DNA of 64,000 nucleotides from Escherichia coli (GTDB lineage: Bacteria; Pseudomonadota; Gammaproteobacteria; Enterobacterales; Enterobacteriaceae), in NCBI RefSeq assembly GCF_003018235.1, contig NZ_CP027437.1. One strand, 5' to 3'. The position numbers were made by a program, and so were the translations under genes. The notes under the pieces were generated by a model. It saw nothing but the letters and a program-made list of their open reading frames with translations. It had not been told where the DNA came from and made no database searches. The number at the start of each line of letters is the position of its first letter. The first letter of the stretch is position 1. Positions 21,296 to 36,218 of the stretch are shown here, piece after piece.

Positions 21296-21346
21296 GCCTG
21301 ATGCGCTTCGCTTATCAGGTCTATGTATGCCGGATAAGGCGTTTAC
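21296..21346. repeat. REP/BIME: one complete palindromic unit plus the left half of a second unit that is split by the IS; right half resumes at 22779-22797
   Basis: gcctgatgcgcttcgcttatcaggtc and gccggataaggcgtttac | ... | gtttacgccgcatccggca; joining the flanks restores a canonical REP palindrome. Confidence 0.8.
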
Positions 21347-21876
21347 TGAACTGCACCCCAAATGTTGGACACAATCTGACATCTGAAGGTGCAGTTTATG
21401 AAACATTCATTTGAAGTAAAACTTGCCGCTGTAAATCATTACCTGGCCGGTCATGCAGGCATCATTTCTACGGCAAAACTCTTTCAACTTTCTCACACCA
21501 GCCTCTCACACTGGATTAATCTTTTTCTTCTTCACGGTCCTCAGGCACTGGATTGCAGACACAAGCGTAGCTATTCTCCTGAAGATAAACTTTGCGTGGT
21601 TCTTTATGCTCTCGGGCATTCTGAGTCTCTACCCCGGGTAGCTGCCCGGTTTAACATTCCCAGCCACAACACGGTTAAAAACTGGATAAAAGGCTACCGC
21701 AAATCTGGTAATGAGGCCTTTATCAGGCGCAGGAAGGAGAAAAGCATGACCCGTTCTGATGATACCCATGAAAACGAGGCAAACATGACGCCGGAAGAGA
21801 TGAAGAATGAGCTGCGTTATCTTCGCGCAGAAAATGCATATCTGAAAGCCATGCAGGAGCATCTCCTGGAAAAAAA

Positions 21877-22778
<902 letters not shown>

Positions 22779-22809
22779 GTTTACGCCGCATCCGGCAACC
22801 TGACATAAA

Positions 22810-24465: not shown

Positions 24466-25029
24466 TCACGATTGCATATTTTTAGTGAAGATTAATTTAT
24501 CCTCACCAACATCATAGTAATTGCGTATTATAGCTTCATTGATAAAGCCCTGTTTTGTATAAAATGCGCGGGTGGCACTAAAATCGACATAGCTGGAGGT
24601 CTCTACTAAAAGTAGTCTTGCGCAGGGAAAGGAGAACGCACTAATGACATGAATCGCTCCCCTGCGGCGACTCTTGTCATAAGAATGCCGGAGCGTTTTT
24701 CCATCAATTGCAATAACGTCTTTATCATCTGAAGAATGGCAGTCACGCATCCAGTTAATAAAGCACTCGTGAAATTTTGCAGGACTGATACAGGATACAA
24801 CTCTGGCAATGGTATCGTGAACAGAAATACCATTTTCAAAATCACCATATTGCTTCAAAAAATCGAGATGTGTTTCCCCAAAATCCTCTATATCTTCCCA
24901 GCCTTCTGCACCAGAAACAACGGCACAAATAGTCAACAGTAGAATATCAGACAATTTATATTCCACTTTCCAGGCTTGTCTGTAATCGGGGATAATAGAA
25001 ATATGTTCCATCAATTTTTTAAGTTCCAT
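24466..25029 (-). pseudogene. Truncated H-repeat (ISAs1-family) transposase N-terminus (~137 codons, 24619-25029) fused in frame to an unrelated ~50-codon 3' remnant
   Basis: [50 protein letters not shown]... matches H-rpt proteins up to ...AIHVISAFS, then diverges to ...[15 protein letters not shown]... (GNAT-like C-terminus). Confidence 0.75.
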
Positions 25030-25236
25030 TTTGTTCTCCTTAATTATGTAAGGAGTATTTGATCATGTATACGCAATAAAAAACAGCTTCAGGTAATGAG
25101 GAATATCTCAATTTTTAAACATAAAATGCGAATTATTTAGTACAAAAAATCAGCGTTACGTAATCTTTCCCTGATTAAACAGGTGGTTAAAGGAATGAAG
25201 GTGGGGATATCCGGCGTATTGAAAGAAGCATAAAAA

Positions 25237-25270
25237 TGAAAGCCGGGAAGTTCTAATTTTCTTCCCGGCT
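25237..25270 (-). terminator. Rho-independent terminator downstream of the orphan immunity gene
   Basis: aaagccgggaag ... cttcccggcttt with flanking T-run on the minus strand. Confidence 0.65.
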
Positions 25271-25274
25271 TTCA

Positions 25275-25559
25275 TTAGACTTCTTCTATTTCATATTTTA
25301 TAGACAATTCATGAAAGGCAGTAAATACCAGTGAAAATAATTTATCTCTATCACTTCCATTTAAATTATTTACAATGAAAAAACCATCCTCATGATCTTC
25401 TATTGAAAAATCAATCCAGTTTGAATAACTAGATGGAATCCAAAGTGAACCATCAGTATTAATCCGAGAGGATGGTTGATTTTCTTTTATTCTCTCGACA
25501 ATAAAAGAAAGTAAATTATCTACTTTATCATCAACATGTATAATATATTCAACACTCAT
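25275..25559 (-). CDS. Putative immunity protein for the orphan Rhs toxin tip (94 aa)
   Basis: Small AT-rich ORF 12 nt downstream of the orphan rhs-CT; no recognisable domain. Confidence 0.55.
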   Translation of the reverse strand: MSVEYIIHVDDKVDNLLSFIVERIKENQPSSRINTDGSLWIPSSYSNWIDFSIEDHEDGFFIVNNLNGSDRDKLFSLVFTAFHELSIKYEIEEV

Positions 25560-25571
25560 TAATTTCTTGCC

Positions 25572-26024
25572 TTATGCGCCGCACCCATGGGCTCGCCCTC
25601 GTTTTGTAGGATAATCATTTGGATTCCTGATCCCTATGTGTGTTTCATTCGGATTAGTACTCGGAATGCCTCTGTCATTCAGAGGTACCTCACCGGGATC
25701 ATATTTATGCACATGTGCGTTAGCCCCAGACTTAGGTAATGGATCACCGTTTTTCATCGTCATACTTTGATTTCCATAGGGATCGACACGAACTTTAGAG
25801 CCATCAGCGTGACTCCATGTCTGATTCCCGGTACTTGTTTGTTTATCCAAATTGAATCCATTATCAGTAAGAATAGAACCTATTGCCCCTGGGGATCTTC
25901 CTTTTAATTGAGGCAAATCAGAGGCGGCACTTAATCCAAGAGGATCTATCCATCCAAGAGGGTTAGGCGCATAAGCATACAGGTTTAACCCACCCGCCAG
26001 CCCTATCGGATCAGTACACAGATA
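25572..26024 (-). other. Orphan rhs C-terminal cassette: core-end remnant (DPIGLAGGLNLYAYAPNPLGWIDPLGL) plus a distinct ~115-aa toxin tip; no canonical start codon
   Basis: Frame is open from the stop at 26027-26025; 25931-26010 is nucleotide-homologous to 27001-27080 of the main rhs; track ORF start is a non-ATG (TTG) codon. Confidence 0.75.
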
Positions 26025-26138
26025 TTACCACGTCTCGCAATCATAGTACCGGAACCGATGATAGTACAGTCCCGCGTCATGCTATTAAAGACAATGTAGT
26101 GCGATGATATGTGTCATCCCTCAATTATTTTTATAAAA

Positions 26139-26645
26139 TCATATATTATCTTCCTGTTGCAGGAATTGATTATAAAAAGATAGTTTTTTATCTAAAAATA
26201 AAAAGTGATACCCAACCGACTTTAGATCATTATTTATGACAGATAATAACTTATTCCATTCATAGATATATTTATATTTATTTACAAGCAATACACTTTT
26301 ACTAGAATTTAAATTAAAAAGTTCATCCGTGTTTATGGAGATCCATTTTGAAAAAATTTCAATATTCTTTTTATCTATTTTAACATCTAATAATACCGTA
26401 AAGGATTCACATAAGAAATTGCATTCAAAGTTAAACCCGGAGATGATACCATCAAGCATTTTGATAATATCATCAATGATTTCACTCAGGCTATTAAGTG
26501 TTAGTGAAATATGAACGCCATTCCAGTTTATATAAAAACACCCGGATGATATGGGATATGCGGAAAATATAGCCTCCGATAAATTAATATCCTCTTCATC
26601 CATGAGGCCTTTTTGATAAGTATCATCAATTTCTATTTTGAACAT
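26139..26645 (-). CDS. Putative Rhs immunity protein (168 aa from ATG at 26645)
   Basis: ATG lies 1 nt after the rhs TAA stop (TAATATG); AT-rich; position typical of rhsI. Confidence 0.65.
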   Translation of the reverse strand: MFKIEIDDTYQKGLMDEEDINLSEAIFSAYPISSGCFYINWNGVHISLTLNSLSEIIDDIIKMLDGIISGFNFECNFLCESFTVLLDVKIDKKNIEIFSKWISINTDELFNLNSSKSVLLVNKYKYIYEWNKLLSVINNDLKSVGYHFLFLDKKLSFYNQFLQQEDNI

Positions 26646-26646
26646 A

Positions 26647-29600
26647 TTACTTACCCTTTTCATAAATGGGGCCTGCTGTCGATGAATCAATTGGGAAACC
26701 GTGAAAAGTCCCATCCCCATTATTTCTGACCCGAATTTTATCCGGTTTAATAGGTACTCCATTTCCTCCGGGAATATAAACTTCACTCTTACTATTTTGA
26801 TTTATAGGAAAATCTTTCATCTCATCCGGTTTTAGCGTGGCAGCTTGTTCTCCAGCATATTTCAGATCATCCTTGCTTCTCCAAACTCCATGAGGATTCT
26901 TTTCTTTATCTGCAATTGCTTGAGCTGCGTTAGGATGTAGTTTCATCCCATGCCTTTTCCCTCTTGAGTAACCATTCTCGGCTTTTAAGCAGGTGGGATT
27001 TAATCCAAGAGGATCGATCCAACTTAAAGGATTCGGCGCATAAGCGTACAGGTTTAACCCGCCTCTCAGCCCTATCGGGTCCGTTACCATGAACCGCCCG
27101 ACATCCGGATCATAGTACCTGTGCAGATTGTAGTGCAGCCCCGTTTCCCTGTCGAGGTACTGTCCCTGGTAGCGCAGGTTCTGCTCCACCCCGCCGTGGT
27201 CCTTCTCCTGTATCGTGTTACCCCAGACCTGATACCCCGTCTCCCACACGATTTTCCCGTCACTGTCCGTCATCTCTTCCGGCGCGCCGTTCACATCCGT
27301 GTGAAAATACAGTATCCGGTTCAGGCCCTCTTTACCCACCTTATCCACCCGCGCCAGCGGTTCATAACTCCCCGGGTCGCTGTAGATATACAGGCTGCTT
27401 ATTCCCTCCGGCCTGCTCTCCTGCGCCAGCCGCATTCCGTCCCATAAAAATGTCGTCCGGTTGTACGGTTTACCGTCAGGGCTGATGTGCTGTTTTTCCG
27501 TCCGCCTCCCCAGCGCATCGTACACATACCGGTACGTTCCCCGCGCTGTCGTCACTTCCACCATCCGGTGTTCCGCATCATAACGGTAACTCTGCGTGCC
27601 GCTCCGGCCCTCCTTTTCCACCGCACGGCCAAATTCGTCGTAACGGTAGTGCACACCACGGTAAGACATCAGCCGGTTGAACGGCACCACGCTGTTTTCT
27701 GCCGTGGCCCTTTCCCCCGCGCGCCGCGCCAGCAGGTTTCCCGCCGCGTCGTACTCCCAGCTCGCCAGATACCCCTCATCCTCCGAGCGGCACGCCGTGA
27801 TGCGCCCCGTGGGGTCGTAGAAGTAATCCGTTTCCCCCCGCCGGCTGTGCCGCGTCTTCAGCAGTTCATCCTCGCCGCTGTAGCTGTACTGCCGGTCCGT
27901 GAACGTCTCCGGTACCACCCCGCGCATCCCGCTGTATGTCTCCCTGCGCTTCAGCCGCCCGGCGGGGTCATAAAGCTGCCGCGTGCTCAGTCGCCCCTGA
28001 CTTCTGAGCACTTCCCGGTGCAGGGCGTCACGTGTGAACTCGCTGATGACCTCCCGGTCCAGATTTATCTGCTGGAGATGGCCGCTGCCGTAGTACAGAT
28101 GACGCTGCGTTCTGCCGTCCGGAAAGGTGGTGGCTGTCCGGTTGCTGAGTTCATCGTACTGATGGGTCAGGACGCCCTGCGCCGTCTCCTCAGTCAGCAT
28201 CCGCCCCAGTCTGTCGTAACTGAAGCGGATAATCTCCGGTGCGTCCATTTCCCCGGCATCCGACCGTCGGCGGCGGATTTCCAGTAGCTGGTCTGCCGCA
28301 TCATGGACGTATTCCGTACGGCTATCGGCTGTCTCCTTTGCCGTGAGCCGGCCCGCCGCATCACGTGCCAGCCGGTGGCGGATTTCACCGCCCCGGTCCC
28401 CTGTGAACACCACTTCCGTGACCGCGTTCAGCACGTTGTAACGGTACGTCTGGCGGCAGCCGTCCGGATTTATCTGCTCCGCCAGACGGTCCAGCACATC
28501 ATGGCGGAACCGGTAGTTTTCTCCGTTCTCGTTCGTGAGCGTGACCAGACGCCCGTAAGCATCGTACCCGAACGCCGTCCTGCGCCCCGTCGCGTCTGTC
28601 CGGCTGCGCACCCGGCCCTGCCCGTCCCGCTGCCAGCGCGTTATCCTCCCCATCGGGCTGGTGTACTTCACGAGCCTGCCCGCCGCGTCCGACTGGTAAT
28701 TCACCGTGCGGCCGTCCGCCAGTATCACCTCCGTCAGGTGGCCGCTGTCGTCATACCCGTAGCGCGTGCTGTGGCTCTGCGCGTCTGTCATCCGTATCAG
28801 CCGCGTGCGTTCGTCGTAGAACCAGGCCGTCTGCGAGCCGGAACAGTCCGTGTGCCGCATGAGCTGTCCGTCTTCGTTCCACTGAAGGTATTTATTCCCC
28901 CCGCGCGCATCCGTTATCTGCACCACCTGACCGTGGCGGTCATACTGATACCGGGTGTTCTGCTGCAGCGGGTCGGTCACCGCAAGAAGATTGCCGCGTT
29001 CATCGTACTCACAGCACCAGCTGTTCCCCGCCGCGTCCACCTCCGTTTCCGGCTGGTGCCACACCGGGTGCCACTGTGTCTGTGCCACCCGCCCCAGCGG
29101 GTCGTGCGTCTCCGTGATATGCCCCTGCCGGTCATACACATAGCGCCATTTGCCGCCCTGCGCATCGGTCATTCCCAGTAACAGCCGTTCTTCGTCGCTC
29201 CAGCGGAACGTCGTCACCTGCCCGGCTTCGTCCTGGTACGCCGTCACCTGGTTCTGCGCGTCCCACTGATGATAACGCGTGCGCCCCAGCCCGTCCGTCA
29301 CGCACAGCCTGCGTGCCGCGAGGCTCCACGCCAGCCGGTACTGTTCACCGCTGTCCGTGTGGTGCCCCGTCACCCGCCACGCTGCGTCATCCGGGCCTTC
29401 ATACCAGCCCCACTGGTAATAATACCCTTCGCCGCCCGGCTGGCGGTGCAGGGTCATGCAGTGGTTTTCGTCGTAAGCAAACTCGCGCAGCAGGTGCCCC
29501 GTGCTGTCGTACACGCCGTTCAGGTCGCCGGCCTCGTCATAGCGGTAACGACGCAGCAGTAAAGGAGCCGTCTCAGGGAAATGCTGATAAATCTGTGTCA

Positions 29601-31311
29601 CCCGCCGGGGATGCGCCGCCAGTTCATAATGCAGACGGATGCACGGACGCTGCTGTTCACCGCTGATTTGCGTGATGCGTCCCCGGTCGTCGTAGTACAG
29701 ATTCAGACAGTTGCTGTTGCGGTCGCCCAGCATTTTCAGCCGCTGGCGCTGCGGGTGACGCGGGTCGGCCTCAAACAGAAAAAACTGCCCGTCATCGCTG
29801 CTGATAAGCCAGTGCCCCTGCTCACCCCGCCGTACTGCCAGTCCTTCGCCGGGGCTGTAAAACCCGCTCCCCGGCAGCACGGCCTCCATATCCAGACGTC
29901 GTCCCATGCCCGACACAAAGGTCATACAGTTTTCGTCAGCAGTACCCGGCGTGCGCTCGAGGCTGACTTCATACATCACGCTCCAGCCCTGCCCGAACAT
30001 CCCTTCCGTGCGGTCGTCACGACTGCTGTACACGCGCTGCCAGTCCAGCGGAAAGTGGCCCGGCAGACTGAAATCGAAGTCATCGTCATCCGCCAGATAT
30101 TTGGCTCCGGTGGCGGCATTGACCGGATGCGGAAGGGCACTGATGGCCTTCTGCGTCATCACCCCCATCCCGACACTGGCAGCAAAACAGGCGATTTTAG
30201 AAAGCATTTTGCCCGGGCGAAGAAACATCAGCGCCACGGTTGCCACCAGGGTTATCTGCGACCTGCCGCTTCTGATATCCCTGACCACCAGTAACGGACC
30301 GCCAATGCGGACATCCGGTGACACAAACGCCCCGTTCCCCGGCTCATTCACCACCCTGGCCTCGCAGGTACAGCGTGCCCCGCTGCGCGCCGCCGGCTGG
30401 CTGTTGATACGCACATCCCGCGCGCCTTCCGCGATATATTCCGCTGCGGGCGGTTCATCATCGCCTTTGAACAGATTACTGATGCTGCCAATAACCGCAT
30501 TCACTCCCTGAAAGGCGGTTTCCAGCATACCGCCCGGACTCAGCAGGTTAAGGGCCGTTCCCAGAGGGTCATCCAGAAAGGCGGCTTTTTTTTGTGCGAG
30601 AAACTGCGTCAGTGAGGAGGGATGTTTATGGCAGTCGATTTTATCGTCAGGGGTCGGGGTGGAGCCCGGGGCCGCACTGGCCACGGTGGGCTGCCATAGT
30701 TCCGACACAAAATGTGTCACGCCATCCACCATTTCAGAACGCCCTTCTTCCGTACTGAGCTGGTCATGCAGCGCCCGGGACATCAGCACAGGCCCTGTCA
30801 CCGGGTTAACCGCCAGGGCTATGGCCCCCGCCATTTCCAGATATTCCCCGGCCACATCCCGGAACGTTCTGGCGTCCTCCTGACGCTGCGCTTCTTCCTG
30901 TTCCGCCTTCGCCTGTGCCTCCTGCGCCTCAATGTCCTGCCGCGATGCCGCAGTCGCCGCGGCCCGCGCGGCAGGTTTGCTGTTGATCCATGTGTCGCCA
31001 GAGCCGGTGAGGATGTAACCTTCAATCTGAGGCGGGAAAAGCCAGTTCGCCAGTTGCTCACTTTCCCTACTGATTCGGTCATTCCAGCCCTGATACGACA
31101 TAAATACCGCTGTTGCTATACCGATCGCTAAAATGGTTGAGCAGCCCAGCGTTGCCACTTCAACTCCGCCCAGCGCCGCCATGGTTCCGACAACCAGAAC
31201 ATCCACCAGGGCTGTGGCGGCAACCTCTACAACTGCCCCCAGCACATCTGCCATAAACGACGTATGCAGCAGGGCATCACCCTGCCTTGCCGCCCAGAAT
31301 GCCTCTTCCAT
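26647..31311 (-). CDS. Rhs-family polymorphic toxin / T6SS effector (1554 aa): prePAAR motif, N-terminal TM region, PAAR region, YD-repeat shell, PxxxxDPxGL, ~110-aa C-terminal toxin tip of unassigned family
   Basis: N-terminal AARQGDALLH motif; hydrophobic segment ADVLGAVVEVAATALVDVLVVGTMAALGG...; two PAAR tetrapeptides; numerous YD repeats; DPIGLRGGLNLYAYAPNPLSWIDPLGL before the tip. Confidence 0.9.
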   Translation of the reverse strand: MEEAFWAARQGDALLHTSFMADVLGAVVEVAATALVDVLVVGTMAALGGVEVATLGCSTILAIGIATAVFMSYQGWNDRISRESEQLANWLFPPQIEGYILTGSGDTWINSKPAARAAATAASRQDIEAQEAQAKAEQEEAQRQEDARTFRDVAGEYLEMAGAIALAVNPVTGPVLMSRALHDQLSTEEGRSEMVDGVTHFVSELWQPTVASAAPGSTPTPDDKIDCHKHPSSLTQFLAQKKAAFLDDPLGTALNLLSPGGMLETAFQGVNAVIGSISNLFKGDDEPPAAEYIAEGARDVRINSQPAARSGARCTCEARVVNEPGNGAFVSPDVRIGGPLLVVRDIRSGRSQITLVATVALMFLRPGKMLSKIACFAASVGMGVMTQKAISALPHPVNAATGAKYLADDDDFDFSLPGHFPLDWQRVYSSRDDRTEGMFGQGWSVMYEVSLERTPGTADENCMTFVSGMGRRLDMEAVLPGSGFYSPGEGLAVRRGEQGHWLISSDDGQFFLFEADPRHPQRQRLKMLGDRNSNCLNLYYDDRGRITQISGEQQRPCIRLHYELAAHPRRVTQIYQHFPETAPLLLRRYRYDEAGDLNGVYDSTGHLLREFAYDENHCMTLHRQPGGEGYYYQWGWYEGPDDAAWRVTGHHTDSGEQYRLAWSLAARRLCVTDGLGRTRYHQWDAQNQVTAYQDEAGQVTTFRWSDEERLLLGMTDAQGGKWRYVYDRQGHITETHDPLGRVAQTQWHPVWHQPETEVDAAGNSWCCEYDERGNLLAVTDPLQQNTRYQYDRHGQVVQITDARGGNKYLQWNEDGQLMRHTDCSGSQTAWFYDERTRLIRMTDAQSHSTRYGYDDSGHLTEVILADGRTVNYQSDAAGRLVKYTSPMGRITRWQRDGQGRVRSRTDATGRRTAFGYDAYGRLVTLTNENGENYRFRHDVLDRLAEQINPDGCRQTYRYNVLNAVTEVVFTGDRGGEIRHRLARDAAGRLTAKETADSRTEYVHDAADQLLEIRRRRSDAGEMDAPEIIRFSYDRLGRMLTEETAQGVLTHQYDELSNRTATTFPDGRTQRHLYYGSGHLQQINLDREVISEFTRDALHREVLRSQGRLSTRQLYDPAGRLKRRETYSGMRGVVPETFTDRQYSYSGEDELLKTRHSRRGETDYFYDPTGRITACRSEDEGYLASWEYDAAGNLLARRAGERATAENSVVPFNRLMSYRGVHYRYDEFGRAVEKEGRSGTQSYRYDAEHRMVEVTTARGTYRYVYDALGRRTEKQHISPDGKPYNRTTFLWDGMRLAQESRPEGISSLYIYSDPGSYEPLARVDKVGKEGLNRILYFHTDVNGAPEEMTDSDGKIVWETGYQVWGNTIQEKDHGGVEQNLRYQGQYLDRETGLHYNLHRYYDPDVGRFMVTDPIGLRGGLNLYAYAPNPLSWIDPLGLNPTCLKAENGYSRGKRHGMKLHPNAAQAIADKEKNPHGVWRSKDDLKYAGEQAATLKPDEMKDFPINQNSKSEVYIPGGNGVPIKPDKIRVRNNGDGTFHGFPIDSSTAGPIYEKGK

Positions 31312-31782: not shown

Positions 31783-33763
31783 AATGATATGAGTCCTTTT
31801 AAATTAATAAATTATTTAATGATGGTTTTTGTTTATTTTTTAGTCATGAAGGCGACATCTATCGCCAATTGAAGGGCTGTTTTTTCCGATGTTCCAGGCG
31901 GAAGTATATCTGCCGCCCTGTTATTCATATTTAAATCAAGCTGACCTGATTGTGTATTTATCTTTCCATTTTCTGTTGCAGTAATATTAAAATTCTTACA
32001 GGTTATATTAAATATTCCGTCACTGGTCATTTGCAGGATAGTGTTCCCACAACTAAGAATTATGGAATCTCCCGCAGCAAGGCGTAAATTCTGTACGGCC
32101 TGAATCGTTTTATTTTGTCCGGCAAGGGAGGTATCATCCATCTGAACTGTAAGAGAACGTTCCTCACCAATTATCGCTGTTTCTGTTTTATCAATGACTT
32201 TAAGGCGATTATTGCCCACCCAGTGGCTTTCATTATTATTTACTTCAATCCGCTGATCTTTTTCGGCATGTAGCCAGACCTCTTCACCGCCAGGTTTATC
32301 CTCAAAACGTAGTGCGTTGGCATTGGTTGGGCCGCCGCCGATAGTGTGACTGTAAAATCCGCTTTGCGTCGCTGCGCCCGGTAGTCCCCACGGTGGCATG
32401 GTGTCCTGGTTGTAGGTACGCCCAACAATTATCGGTAAATCCGGATCACCGTTTTTGAAATCCACCAGTACTTCCTGACCAATGCGCGGGATCTGAATGC
32501 CACCGAATCCTTTACCCGCCCACGGATAACTGACACGGACCCAGCAGGAACTATTTTCGTCATTCTTACCGTAACGATCCCAGCCAAACTGAACTTTCAC
32601 CCGGCCATATTTATCTGTCCAGATTTCCTGCCCTGCCGGGCCGGTGACGATGGCGCTCTGCGGGCCTTTAGTGTGGGGTTTGCTCAGGGTTCGTTGTGGG
32701 CGGTAAACTTCGCTGGTGGGATGCAGTTCAAAGCTGGTTGAGTAAGAGAAATGCTGCTCCTGGCCGCTGTGTTGCGCATTGTCCTGTATAAATAGCGTGG
32801 TCTGTACCAGCAGATATTCCCGGTTCACTTCGGCTGTCGGATAGTTTTCCAGGATGAAGGTAAAACCTGTCATCAGGGTACGAATATTGCCGCTGCCCTG
32901 TACCCGACTACCTGGGCTACGCTGTTCTTCCATGCGAATGCGTGTCAGCATTTCACCTTCACTCTTTGTGAAGTAATCTCCCGGCCATTCGTAGTGCTCA
33001 TATTCAGCAAGGCCGGTTTCACGCGGATTAGCCACGGTGCTCTTCAGCAGTGAACGCGGCTTCATAAAGTCGAAATCATTCAGCACCCACTGTCCACTGC
33101 GCAGACTTTCATTTGCTGTGATGGTATGGATAAACTCCTTGTCCAGTTTCAGCCCTTTCTGGTAATAACACACCAGCGGCGAATCTGCGCATGCCTTGTG
33201 GACATTAATGGCATCAGCCAGCACTAACGTGTGACTGTTCTCGCTGTGCTCAAACCACCAGTAGATACCCCACTCCTGCATCAGGCGCTGAACAAAATCG
33301 AAATCTGTTTCACCGTACTGCACCTGCCAGGCGCGAGTCGGATAATTTTCCACCAGTCGTTTTTCCACTGGCCAGGGGTACTCATCCAGTACCTCATCCA
33401 GGATCTCCACCACGTTTTTATTCTGAAACGCTTTGTAGTCACTAGTGTGGGTCAGTATTTTTAACCACGGTTCGAGCCGCAGTTCATACACCACCGAACG
33501 TCCTTGATGACCAGCCACGCGTGCCGCCGTCACCAGCCCGCTGATATAACGTTTTCCGCCGCCATCCAATTCGATATTGACGCACAGATCTTTGCCCACC
33601 ATCGGTTTGAGCTGCAGGTTGGCTGCGGGGGAAACATAGCCCAGGTTCAGGATGTCAGGAGTTTTTAATTTAATAGAATAAGTAAATAGTTCCCCTACTG
33701 TTTCTGTACCCCCTAAGCTTGCAAACAGTAACATGATCCTACCCACGTAATGTGGACACGGCC

Positions 33764-34618
33764 CTAAGCGAGATTATGGTTTTCAAATTGTTCCGGGCTG
33801 AGACCGCCACAGGCACTGTGACGACGCCAGCGATTGTAATCACTCTCGATATAATTAAACACCGTTGCCCGCATTATTTCCCGGCTGCTAAAGCGTTCCC
33901 CGTGGATACATTCCACCTTCAGCGAATGAAAGAAGCTTTCCACACAGGCATTGTCATAACAGTAGCCTTTCGCACTCATACTGCCACGCAGGTTGTGTCG
34001 CTTCAGCATTGCCTGATAATCCCCTGAACAGTATTGACCACCACGGTCCGTATGAACAATGACGTTTTCCGGGCGTCTTCTCCGCCACAACGCCATTTGC
34101 AGTGCATCACAGGCCAGTTGTGCTGTCATTCGCGGTGACATCGACCAGCCAATGACGGCGCGTGACCACAGGTCGATGACTACTGCGAGATACAACCAGC
34201 CCTCATCGGTACGCAAGTACGTGATGTCACCCGCCCACTTCTGGTTCGGGCCACTGGCGCTGAAGTCCTGCTCCAGCAGATTCTCCAATACGGGCAGGCC
34301 ATGTGCACGGTAGCTGACCGGGCTGAACTTCCGGCTGGCTTTCGCCCGCAGCCCCTGACGACGCAGGCTGGCGGCAATGGTTTTAATATTGAACTCCGGC
34401 AGTTCGTCAGCAAGGCGGGGAGCACCGTATCGCTGCTTTGCCTCAAAGAATGCCTTATGGACAGCGGCATCGCAGGTGAGCCGAAACTGTTGGCGCAGGC
34501 TCATCTGGTGACGACGCCTGAGCCAGACATACCAGCCGCTGCGGGCAACCCGAAGTACACGACACATCGCTTTGATGCTGAACTCTGCCCGATGATTTTC
34601 GATGAAGACATACTTCAT
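33764..34618 (-). CDS. insF: IS3 transposase OrfB (DDE integrase core; made by -1 frameshift from OrfA)
   Basis: rve-domain sequence ...[34 protein letters not shown]...; overlaps orfA end. Confidence 0.9.
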
Positions 34619-34914
34619 TTCAGGCGCTTCGCGAAGTATGTCGCGGCCTTTTGGAGGATGGCCAGTTCCTCAGCCTGCTCCGCCAGTTGTCGTTTAAGGC
34701 GGACATTTTCAGCGGCCAGTTCGCTTTCGCGCTCTGACGAACTCATTTGTTGCTGCTGTTTACTGCGCCAGGCATAAAGCTGAGATTCATACAGGCTGAG
34801 TTCACGGGCTGCGGCGGCCACACCGATGCGTTCAGCGAGTTTCAGGGCTTCGTTACGAAATTCAGGCGTATGTTGTTTACGGGGCTTCTTGCTGATTGAT
34901 ACTGGTTTTGTCAT
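34615..34914 (-). CDS. insE: IS3 transposase OrfA (99 aa)
   Basis: [52 protein letters not shown]... Confidence 0.9.
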
Positions 34915-35295
34915 GAGTCACCTCTGGTTGAGAGTTTACTCACTTAGTCCTGTGTCCACTATTGGTGGGTAAGATCAACATTCCATCAGGAACTGCGCTG
35001 CCGCTCAAAGTCACGTTATGTGTACCCGATCCAGTTAGTGCGCCGGATGGATAATCTGTAGCTGCAAAACTCATAATTAATCCTTTTAACTAGAAATGGA
35101 TAAGTGCTAATAAGAAATCTTACAGAGAATAAAATATGCAATATATTCGTAGCTGGCATAAAACATCTCAATACTTATGCGTGCTACTGAAGATACTATC
35201 AACCATATATGCCTTGAAGAATGCACCGTCATGTTAACCTGGTGGAAACATTCACCTAAAGTACATTAATAAAACTAATAAAATTATTTAATTTG

Positions 35296-35652
35296 TTATT
35301 TGATATGATTATCATCAAGTCTTAAAATACGTTCTCCGGTTCTAATTATGTTAAAACCATAGTATTCTTTTTTACTTTCGGAAGAGAGCATATATTTCCC
35401 GATATACATAACATCTGAAGATAGCTCACTTATATCAATACATACGGGTTCGAACTGACCTGTCACTCTTTTCAACTTTATTGCATTGCCATATTTACCT
35501 TCATATAAAACATAATTTGAAATAATATTCCCATCGTCTGGTTTTGAACAAATCTGTCCGTCTTGCAAATATACACTACCGGGTAACAATGGGCGAACAT
35601 AATCACCAACAGTGCATCCCGACAAAAAGAAAAACAAAAAGAATCTCTTCAT
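35296..35652 (-). CDS. Predicted outer-membrane lipoprotein (118 aa); candidate immunity protein for the upstream HExxH protein
   Basis: Signal peptide plus lipobox MKRFFLFFFLSG-C; Thr at +2; ATGA overlap with the upstream gene. Confidence 0.7.
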   Translation of the reverse strand: MKRFFLFFFLSGCTVGDYVRPLLPGSVYLQDGQICSKPDDGNIISNYVLYEGKYGNAIKLKRVTGQFEPVCIDISELSSDVMYIGKYMLSSESKKEYYGFNIIRTGERILRLDDNHIK

Positions 35653-36218
35653 ATGACACCCGCAGGAAATAAATTAAGCACCTTTTTGTATTTTTCCGAT
35701 AGAGTGTTCACTGATTCAGTTGTATCACCTACATAGTTAACATTTGCCAAATCAGCCACCAGTCCATAGTTAATTAATAGCCAATAATCAGCAACTATAG
35801 ATGCTTGTTGTTCCATGGAATAAGAAGAAATTGACTGTAAATTAAGATCGTAATGATAATTTGCCGCCCAAGAAAATAAACCACGCAACTTAACTGCATA
35901 CCCTTTCTGATATTGCCAAACATGCATCATTTCATGAATAAACAAGTGAGAAGCACCTGCTACTGTTTCACGATCACCAGGCATTGCTTGCGATGAATAA
36001 TCTGAACTATAAACAGCATCAGGATAATACATTTCCCCGTTTGGGGTCATCGCTGTTCTTTCCCCTTGACCAGGCAAATATTTTTCATTGTGGATCCATA
36101 CCTTGCTATAATCAATTGTATTCTCAAAAATCGATCTGGCCAATGTTAATTCACCAGATGTCATTCTCCTTAATGACATATCCTTTCCCCTGGAAATAAT
36201 ATCTTTCAGATAAAACAC
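35649..36218 (-). CDS. DUF4157-like zincin metallopeptidase-fold protein with HExxH motif (189 aa); candidate antibacterial effector
   Basis: Motifs IDYSKVWIH ... GEMYYP ... SHLFIHEMMHVWQYQ; no signal peptide; translationally coupled to the lipoprotein ORF. Confidence 0.65.
   Translation of the reverse strand: MFYLKDIISRGKDMSLRRMTSGELTLARSIFENTIDYSKVWIHNEKYLPGQGERTAMTPNGEMYYPDAVYSSDYSSQAMPGDRETVAGASHLFIHEMMHVWQYQKGYAVKLRGLFSWAANYHYDLNLQSISSYSMEQQASIVADYWLLINYGLVADLANVNYVGDTTESVNTLSEKYKKVLNLFPAGVI

Follow-up and report, generated by a model that had tools for sequence, protein, structure and literature searches.

Does the window (the whole stretch of 64,000 nucleotides of Escherichia coli DNA that was analysed, from contig NZ_CP027437.1) carry a working vgrG spike gene ahead of its Rhs toxin, or a broken one? 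A sequence-only reading had proposed that vgrG is split here by an IS3 insertion flanked by a 3-bp target duplication, and the split is borne out by the two ACA copies, the TG...CA ends of the element and the uninterrupted alleles of other strains. The parts of the interrupted gene and of the element are as follows:

31833 to 33733, minus strand: body of vgrG, codons 33-664 plus stop, with gp27-like and gp5-like domains (TIGR03361, 556 bits)
33731 to 33733: left copy of the target-site duplication, ACA on the plus strand, TGT in the vgrG sense
33734 to 34977, minus strand: complete ISEc16 (IS3 family, IS3 group), 1244 bp, co-oriented with vgrG
~33734-33772 (IRR) and ~34939-34977 (IRL): terminal repeats of ISEc16, with ends 5'-TG...CA-3'
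33764 to 34618, minus strand: IS orfB, 284 aa counted from its first ATG; encodes the DDE transposase part and overlaps orfA in the -1 frame
34615 to 34914, minus strand: IS orfA, 99 aa, taken from the ORF list, corresponding to the N-terminal part of NF033516
34978 to 34980: right copy of the target-site duplication, ACA, where intact alleles have a single ACA
34979 to 35074, minus strand: 5' fragment of vgrG, codons 1-32 (MSFAATDYPSGALTGSGTHNVTLSGSAVPDGM)

Where exactly does the element end? Of the 39 outermost positions, 30 agree between its terminal inverted repeats, and its end sequences read TGATCC... and ...AAGATCA; the copies in E. coli 536 and 95-3322 part from the window exactly outside TGATCC...AAGATCA. 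The empty site in uninterrupted alleles reads ...CAAACAGTA-ACA-TTCCATC..., with one ACA only. The other element copies and this single ACA therefore fix the boundaries independently. They leave the left end at 33734, as had been proposed, and move the right end by one base, from 34976 to 34977; likewise the left ACA (33731-33733) stands, while the triplet at 34977-34979 is AAC and the true right copy lies at 34978-34980. The upstream ATG is real as well, and is the complement of 35072-35074, with its start at 35074 rather than 35073. Deletion of 33734-34979 (1246 bp), the interval that follows from the original coordinates, produces a frameshift with a stop after 52 codons, and deletion of 33734-34976 also shifts the frame, whereas deletion of 33734-34980 (the IS plus one ACA, 1247 bp) joins the two parts in frame and gives 664 open codons. 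A longer element was also considered, as 15 bases past the end could be aligned to ISEc16 copies (microcin island; 536 and 95-3322); it was ruled out, the likeness of the flanks being due to chance (CAAACAGTAACA versus CATACAGGTAATA) and the element stopping at TG.

A 3-bp repeat by itself has a chance of 1/64, and it is the comparison with the empty site that puts the insertion, on this alignment evidence, beyond chance. Without the IS and one ACA, the gene aligns as a single ungapped piece of 2095 nt, at 100.0% identity, with the uninterrupted vgrG annotated in strain HCP5S3_I2 (NZ_CM149870.1), where the intact allele encodes 664 aa (WP_059341537.1). Restored in this way, the window's gene is thus nucleotide-identical to an intact 664-aa allele, and the claim that it can be recovered at ~664 aa holds. 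Its protein differs from WP_000006344.1 (664 versus 664 aa) by 3 substitutions and 0 indels, the vgrG of strain 13P477T differs from the restored one by 3 residues, and the restored 1200-nt junction is found at 99.8% identity, in single pieces, in many genomes. The alignment of the window to an intact locus is interrupted precisely at the IS, where its two parts overlap by 5 bases. The restored protein scores about 557 bits against TIGR03361 (cut-off 186) and 417 bits against TIGR01646 (cut-off 122), and is homologous to the solved VgrG chains 9mlp, 7q5p, 4mtk and 8qja, with 9mlp_A the closest.

In the window itself the frame is split after codon 32, so that there is no intact translatable vgrG ORF, and the gene is a pseudogene. 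Its ATG at 35074 has a good ribosome-binding site upstream (AAGGA, 6 nt spacing), and the ORF that starts there runs for 12 codons into the IS to a stop at 34940-34942, making 44 aa in total. The body of the gene lacks its own start codon and ribosome-binding site. The 637-aa ORF beginning MGRIM (31833-33746) was rightly regarded as an artefact, with codons 1-4 and the A of codon 5 contributed by the IS terminus.

The element belongs to the IS3 family on account of its length (within the 1.2-1.55 kb class), its TG...CA ends, its overlapping orfA and orfB and its 3-bp duplication (3-4 bp class). OrfB scores 322.9 bits against the IS3-family transposase model NF033516 (cut-off 160). The end region of orfA, within the orfA/orfB overlap, reads ...CTC CAA AAG GCC... 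and contains the A AAA G -1 frameshift motif; the term 'programmed frameshift' comes from the annotation of equivalent copies of the IS in other genomes. IS isoforms are by convention at least about 90-95% identical. The element is not IS3 itself because it shows only 81.3% DNA identity, with 9 gap openings, to IS3A of K-12; at the protein level OrfA matches K-12 IS3 at 83/100 positions (~83%) and OrfB at 250/289 (~87%, InsF). In contrast, many E. coli copies named by PGAP 'IS3-like element ISEc16 family transposase' match it at 99.4% identity over its full length (1-1244), and the copy in E. coli 536 differs from it by 9 mismatches and 0 indels. The assignment to ISEc16, an IS3-family element distinct from IS3 and no isoform of it, is thus a matter of sequence likeness to PGAP-annotated copies. 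ISEc16-like sequence recurs within E. coli genomes (median, 3 places each), and this is also the one point in favour of a repeated IS having been misplaced into vgrG by the assembler. We consider such an artefact exceedingly improbable: an exact 3-bp duplication, precise TG...CA ends and seamless restoration to a known allele are the signature of transposition and not of a mis-join.

The interrupted gene sits in an accessory T6SS island at the ansP / RhsE position of E. coli. Its neighbours are:

26647 to 31311, minus strand: class I prePAAR Rhs effector, 1554 aa
31330 to 31782, minus strand: Eag-family (DcrB/DUF1795) chaperone gene, eagR (PF08786, E=1.1e-18)
35296 to 36218, minus strand: upstream gene pair in the same orientation (6h56_A, E=1e-20; NF045617, 32 bits, below its cut-off of 43)
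35649 to 36218, minus strand: HExxH protein of that pair, 189 aa, a relative of the metallopeptidase effector domain of P. aeruginosa VgrG2b
35296 to 35652, minus strand: lipoprotein, 118 aa, the second gene of that pair

The chaperone gene, called 'DcrB-related protein' by PGAP in the intact loci, lies 50 bp downstream of vgrG, and a gap of 18 bp separates it from rhs. Inspection of the Rhs translation shows AARQGDALLH at residues 7-16 and N-terminal hydrophobic helices, followed by PAAR (PF05488, E=1.7e-5), DUF6531, YD repeats, the RHS core and the DPLGL motif. The protein is placed in class I of the prePAAR Rhs effectors, as defined by the AARxxDxxxH motif (PMC7773334), by this motif together with the TM region, PAAR, YD/Rhs core and adjacent DUF1795 gene. 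Effectors of this type depend on an Eag chaperone and interact with the VgrG spike (PMC7773334). The C-terminal toxin (~117 aa) had no significant match in Pfam or PDB sequence searches. The 118-aa lipoprotein is likely to be an immunity protein. No T6SS core genes are found within the window.

Is the ATG at 35074 the true start of vgrG? The insertion falls exactly at an ATG, that of Met32, and the N-termini of Pseudomonas VgrG1 chains are 11-14 residues shorter than the one we use. If translation normally began at Met32, the IS would lie in the 5' untranslated region and a 633-aa coding sequence would remain intact, separated only from its promoter. Several observations make this very improbable. 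The ATG at 35074 has its AAGGA at 6 nt, against CCTGATGGA with no spacing before Met32 in the intact allele, and all the intact loci inspected carry a 664-aa PGAP annotation. The TIGR03361 alignment opens at model position 9, corresponding to residue 30, and therefore the domain begins upstream of Met32. The closest solved chain, 9mlp_A, aligns from residue 10, with HNVT(L/V)SGSAVP conserved and residues 10-31 conserved at the protein level, and even the Pseudomonas VgrG1 chains retain 14-17 residues N-terminal to the residue-29 position. The ribosome-binding site, the annotation and the conserved N-terminus were the grounds for rejecting Met32, and the 32-codon upstream segment assigned to the gene from the outset is one that intact homologues do carry. 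Codons 1-40 do not vary at all in the 95.5%-identical PapRG-06-5 allele, so that a comparison of synonymous and non-synonymous changes speaks for neither start.

How old and how widespread is the insertion? The island vgrG is present in 234 of 5426 complete E. coli genomes (195 of them with at least 80% coverage), and in the same 5426 genomes no place covers at least 80% of the junction query. In 60 rows drawn from across the 234 genomes with a match, no other IS-split copy was seen; the non-intact copies there are truncations or deletions, as in E2348/69. HCP5S3_I2 was considered as a close relative, since its vgrG is identical, but its flanks are only 98.1-98.7% identical and therefore it is not a sister strain. 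Because 234 of the 5426 genomes carry vgrG and none the junction, the event is strain-specific and private to its lineage; it is probably recent, as had been suggested, since nothing else in the gene has decayed and all these genomes lack the junction.

On the strength of these comparisons we favour, with a probability of roughly 0.88, a reading in which a complete ISEc16 transposed into codon 32/33 of the island vgrG and the function of the spike was thereby lost. ISEc16 is a copy-out/paste-in IS, and the element here has orfA, orfB and both ends intact; no observation runs against this structural part of the reading. The native start would then yield only the 44-aa peptide, made of 32 VgrG residues and 12 encoded by the IS, and the other 632 codons, having no usable start site and missing a conserved N-terminal segment, would give no functional spike. 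Loss of the spike encoded by this gene is very likely on the sequence arguments. The prePAAR Rhs toxin would be deprived of its vehicle, because it is built to ride on the island VgrG, and the VgrG2b-like metallopeptidase encoded upstream probably loses its vehicle too.

Could the insertion have rewired the island instead? The IS points the same way as vgrG, and no terminator-like site was found inside it on that strand. Across the junction the sequence is ...GTGGGTAGGATC-ATG-TTA-CTG..., which rebuilds the Met32 codon in frame (33734-33732; the A comes from the IS end and the TG from the duplication, with GGGTAGGATC preceding). Transcripts from the transposase gene or through the IS might then be translated from this ATG, or from GTG 33746, into an N-terminally truncated but usable VgrG, with eagR and rhs still expressed. 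IS3 was reportedly described as a mobile promoter by Charlier et al. in 1982, and this was counted in favour of such rewiring. However, the AGGA lies only 2 nt before the ATG, too close for normal Shine-Dalgarno spacing, and the GTG has no purine-rich tract upstream. A consensus scan of the vgrG strand found no promoter directed outward from the IS end, nor a hybrid one there, which is weak negative evidence. The 31 missing residues include the segment conserved in the Salmonella-type 9mlp, as well as TIGR03361 positions 1-8; by analogy with gp27-like domains, this would be the first beta-strand of the Hcp-facing domain. We regard this course of events as quite improbable, and the stronger statement that the island is not silenced, with truncated VgrG and eagR/rhs under IS control, as a shade more so. 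If true, it would amount to an IS-driven regulatory change of a toxin island. Apart from that, the rebuilt Met32 ATG might allow low-level synthesis of a truncated VgrG that lacks residues 1-31.

The effect on the downstream genes is a separate matter from loss of the spike. Long untranslated mRNA favours Rho-dependent termination. With the ~1.9 kb of untranslated vgrG ahead of eagR and the tight gaps of 50 bp and 18 bp, transcription of eagR and rhs is probably reduced by Rho-dependent polarity. Nevertheless, the same type of consensus scan found no intrinsic terminator within or at the IS on the minus strand; this is again weak negative evidence, and if no such site exists, read-through into eagR/rhs could be considerable, with little polarity. 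Transcripts reading out of the co-oriented IS may preserve some expression of these genes. There is a further variant, in which the knockout of vgrG is real, eagR and rhs are hardly affected and Rhs is loaded on another VgrG encoded elsewhere. Besides the lack of a terminator in the IS, it draws on the intact eagR and rhs ORFs, on a weak promoter-like site inside the 3' part of vgrG (32088-32059, 9/12 matches) and on the second matching place for vgrG that exists in many of the genomes carrying the gene. We find this variant doubtful, given the tight gaps, the untranslated stretch and the absence of a good promoter ahead of eagR, and a PAAR/Rhs effector usually pairs only with the VgrG encoded alongside it. 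Taken as a whole, the sequence arguments favour inactivation of the spike strongly and polarity moderately, and a polar effect on eagR and rhs is best described as plausible.

What follows from the ISEc16 knockout of vgrG? The right annotation for the 637-aa 'VgrG' ORF is the 3' part of an ISEc16-interrupted pseudogene, not an intact spike gene, and this island probably does not allow the strain to fire either the Rhs toxin encoded next to vgrG or the VgrG2b-like metallopeptidase encoded upstream. The event is an ordinary IS knockout; it is a textbook-clean and apparently recent case with a perfect empty-site reference, and the insertion could be used to mark the lineage, or the strain to provide a natural vgrG-null control. 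Its main relevance lies in annotation and strain phenotype, and it raises no new question for T6SS or transposition biology.

Among known elements, the closest to that in the window are the ISEc16 copies of E. coli 536 and O157:H16 Santai. Aligned along the full 1244 bp they show 99.3-99.4% identity, and they agree with it in their ends, in the arrangement of orfA and orfB and in the programmed -1 frameshift; 7-9 point differences separate the window element from the copies compared. K-12 IS3 (IS3A, insE1/insF1) shares with it the family, the organisation, the 3-bp target duplication and related terminal repeats (TGATC(T/C)TACCCA...), and is longer, at 1255-1258 bp against 1244 bp.

The island itself is known in intact form from HCP5S3_I2 and 13P477T, with the same gene order (metallopeptidase-like protein, lipoprotein, vgrG, DcrB/Eag, rhs, H-repeat/ISAs1) and, as in the window, ansP, yncE and pqqU as neighbours. 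Their vgrG is identical or nearly so to that of the window once the IS is removed; only the window's is interrupted. Strains differ in the C-terminal toxin of Rhs and in the immunity region downstream of it, and the alignments end at 27004-27005 of the window. The rhsE locus of EHEC EDL933 is likewise a vgrG island (PMC7216683). Class I prePAAR Rhs systems have been described as SciW-Rhs1 in Salmonella Typhimurium and EagR1-RhsA-VgrG1 in P. protegens (PMC7773334, PMC8765631). The window shares with both the Eag/DcrB chaperone and an Rhs protein with AARxxDxxxH, TM and PAAR, and its VgrG, related to 7q5p (E=5.5e-139) and 9mlp, adds to the likeness to prePAAR Rhs systems. These two systems are functional by experiment, while the island in the window is known from its sequence and has a broken spike gene. 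Disruption of vgrG or other T6SS genes by an IS is reported from other bacteria, for example Acinetobacter baumannii (PMC4256060, PMC7827689); the kind of event is the same as here, an IS inactivating a T6SS spike gene, while the species, the IS and the gene differ.

Deleting an insertion sequence and one copy of its target duplication (33734-34980) opens a 664-codon vgrG frame, as the sequence-only reading had predicted (~664 aa). A 1200-nt junction from which the IS and one ACA had been removed gave one ungapped match (99.8%) in many complete E. coli genomes, and restored vgrG plus flanking sequence (2095 nt in all) matches an unbroken stretch of E. coli HCP5S3_I2 at 100.0% identity; the intact allele there bears the annotation 'type VI secretion system Vgr family protein' (664 aa, WP_059341537.1). 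The restored protein and that of strain 13P477T are equal in length and differ at three residues. When the window is aligned pairwise with each of these two intact loci, the alignment breaks off precisely at the ends of the IS. We regard the empty-site match as decisive evidence that the insertion is real; an assembly artefact would not yield both a target duplication and seamless restoration. The proposed split of vgrG by an IS3-family element with a 3-bp duplication is borne out by ACA on both sides and a single ACA in intact alleles (...CAAACAGTA-ACA-TTCCATC...). The features at the insertion are:

33734-34977, IS element, 1244 bp, with TG...CA termini, beginning TGATCCTACCCAC... and finishing ...GTGGGTAAGATCA
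34914-34615, minus strand, IS orfA, 99 codons
34618-33764, minus strand, IS orfB, 284 codons, in the -1 frame and overlapping orfA
33731-33733 and 34978-34980, target duplication ACA, flanking the IS on both sides

Three right-hand numbers of the earlier reading were one base low: the last base of the IS is 34977 (not 34976), 34977-34979 read AAC rather than the right ACA, and the first base of the upstream ATG is 35074 (not 35073). Deletion by the earlier numbers produces a frameshift.

The element had been called IS3, which is right for the family and wrong for the name. Since full-length identity is 99.4% to many copies that PGAP names 'IS3-like element ISEc16 family transposase', and only 81.3%, with nine gap openings, to K-12 IS3A, we identify the element as ISEc16, a member of the IS3 family, and not IS3. 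OrfA and OrfB are ~83% and ~87% identical to the K-12 IS3A proteins; OrfB scores 322.9 bits against the NCBIfam IS3-family transposase model (cut-off 160), a slippery site CAA AAG (A AAA G-type) lies within the orfA/orfB overlap, and the terminal repeats agree at 30 of the first 39 positions. IS3 has a closely similar layout and termini, but sequence identity sets ISEc16 apart. Divergence of the ISEc16 copies in E. coli 536 and 95-3322 from the window starts directly outside TG...CA. A longer IS was rejected, as the 15-base alignment extension past its end in the junction search reflects chance likeness of the flanks. No further ISEc16 copy or fragment was found within the window.

A second IS3-family element unrelated to ISEc16, IS1397, lies between yddE and nhoA (21328-22797, element ~21347-22778), within a REP/PU palindrome; the sequences on either side of it are TGCCGGATAAGGCGTTTAC and GTTTACGCCGCATCCGGCA. 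Its identity to copies so named by PGAP is 98.6-99.3%, and the equivalent site of HCP5S3_I2 lacks it. IS1397 habitually inserts into REP sequences. At 3600-6647 (minus), two ORFs of 195 and 803 aa with an in-frame TGA between them were assigned, by gene order and ORF lengths only, to fdnG (formate dehydrogenase-N alpha subunit), where we take the TGA to be the expected selenocysteine codon and not a disruption.

The restored protein easily passes curated VgrG/TssI models (TIGR03361, 557 bits; cut-off 186), and among solved structures it is closest to 9mlp_A (E=0) and the VgrG1 proteins of P. protegens (7q5p) and P. aeruginosa (4mtk). Four signals argue that the 32-codon upstream segment is truly coding. 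A good ribosome-binding site (AAGGA, 6 nt) stands before the ATG at 35074, and the intact allele offers none ahead of Met32, the codon at the insertion point; PGAP annotates a 664-aa product at each of the three intact loci inspected; the 9mlp_A alignment begins at residue 10, with HNVT(L/V)SGSAVP conserved; and TIGR03361 model position 9 falls at residue 30, so that the family domain begins before Met32. The intact loci and 9mlp_A thus carry the segment whose absence from intact homologues would have spoken against the restored frame. Pseudomonas VgrG1 has a shorter N-terminus, but still 14-17 residues before the equivalent of residue 29. A paralogous vgrG-eag-rhs island in E. coli LHM10-1 (NZ_CP037903.1, 1021-3234) encodes a 737-aa VgrG with a core ~83% identical (DNA) to window vgrG and a much longer Ala/Gly-rich N-terminal extension, unrelated to the 32-residue segment.

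The gene is part of an accessory island that adjoins ansP, yncE and pqqU and in which the HExxH and lipoprotein genes are followed by vgrG, eagR and rhs, all on the minus strand; the ORFs 3' of rhs are listed after them:

35649-36218, minus strand, HExxH protein, 189 aa, homologous to the VgrG2b metallopeptidase effector domain (P. aeruginosa; 6h56_A, E=1e-20)
35296-35652, minus strand, lipoprotein, 118 aa, below cut-off on the 'putative T6SS immunity periplasmic lipoprotein' model
50 bp 3' of vgrG, minus strand, eagR, DcrB/DUF1795 (Eag) chaperone gene
18 bp beyond eagR, minus strand, rhs, encoding a 1554-aa Rhs protein
26139-26786, minus strand, candidate immunity ORF after the Rhs C-terminus
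25572-25916 and 25275-25559, minus strand, two small ORFs resembling an orphan toxin-tip and immunity module
24466-25029, minus strand, truncated ISAs1 (H-repeat) transposase, last in the downstream region

Neither Pfam nor NCBIfam has a match for the stand-alone HExxH protein; together with the lipoprotein (35296-36218) it probably forms a pair of cargo effector and immunity protein served by the broken VgrG. Rhs combines a hydrophobic N-terminus, AARQGDALLH at residues 7-16, PAAR, DUF6531, YD repeats and an RHS core, the architecture of a class I prePAAR effector as defined by Ahmad et al. (PMC7773334). Its C-terminal ~117 aa after DPLGL have no Pfam or PDB sequence match, and the region 3' of rhs (24466-27004, minus) differs from that of both intact reference loci.

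From its native start vgrG now encodes a 44-aa peptide, 32 VgrG residues followed by LILPTNSGHRTK from the IS, with the stop at 34940-34942. The 637-aa ORF starting MGRIM was rightly called an artefact, as its GTG and next three codons derive from the IS terminus. The junction also recreates the Met32 ATG: its A is the final base of the IS, and TG comes from the duplication. Because the sole purine-rich tract at this ATG is AGGA, 2 nt away, and the GTG lacks any, efficient initiation at either is unlikely, and any product would miss the conserved N-terminal segment; on both counts the allele is very likely null or near-null. ISEc16 and vgrG are co-oriented, and a consensus scan of the IS on the vgrG strand revealed neither a terminator-like site nor an outward promoter, so that some read-through transcription is possible. 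That the IS drives expression of a shortened spike along with the toxin genes behind it is improbable. With ~1.9 kb of untranslated vgrG now ahead of eagR and rhs, and no convincing promoter of their own (the single candidate, at 32088-32059, agrees at 9 of 12 positions), Rho-dependent polarity on both genes is plausible. Even if they were transcribed, the Rhs toxin would be without its cognate spike, and so, probably, would the upstream metallopeptidase. We infer, on good grounds, both the loss of vgrG function and the possible polarity proposed earlier.

This vgrG is present in 234 of 5426 complete E. coli genomes; in 195 of these the match spans at least 80% of the query, and truncated remnants occur in several of the others (e.g. 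E2348/69). The vgrG::ISEc16 junction occurs in none of the 5426. This fits the recency claimed by the sequence-only reading, and the identity of both halves to an extant intact allele, the perfect duplication and the still open eagR and rhs frames point to a recent, lineage-private insertion. HCP5S3_I2 is not closely related to the source strain overall, to judge by flanks that share only 98.1-98.7% identity with the window. The earlier interpretation is essentially right, with the IS name and three coordinates corrected.

The result is of use for annotation (a pseudogene split by ISEc16) and for strain-phenotype prediction; it is otherwise ordinary, an event of a sort already known. The island occupies the site of the defective RhsE element of K-12, and 'vgr' genes were first named from Rhs elements of the RhsE kind. 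It is found uninterrupted at the equivalent chromosomal place in other E. coli. For EHEC, the rhsE locus is on record as a vgrG island (PMC7216683). Both partners, ISEc16 and the ansP-linked vgrG-eag-rhs island, are already known, and there are reports from other bacteria of insertion sequences that disrupt vgrG or further T6SS genes.
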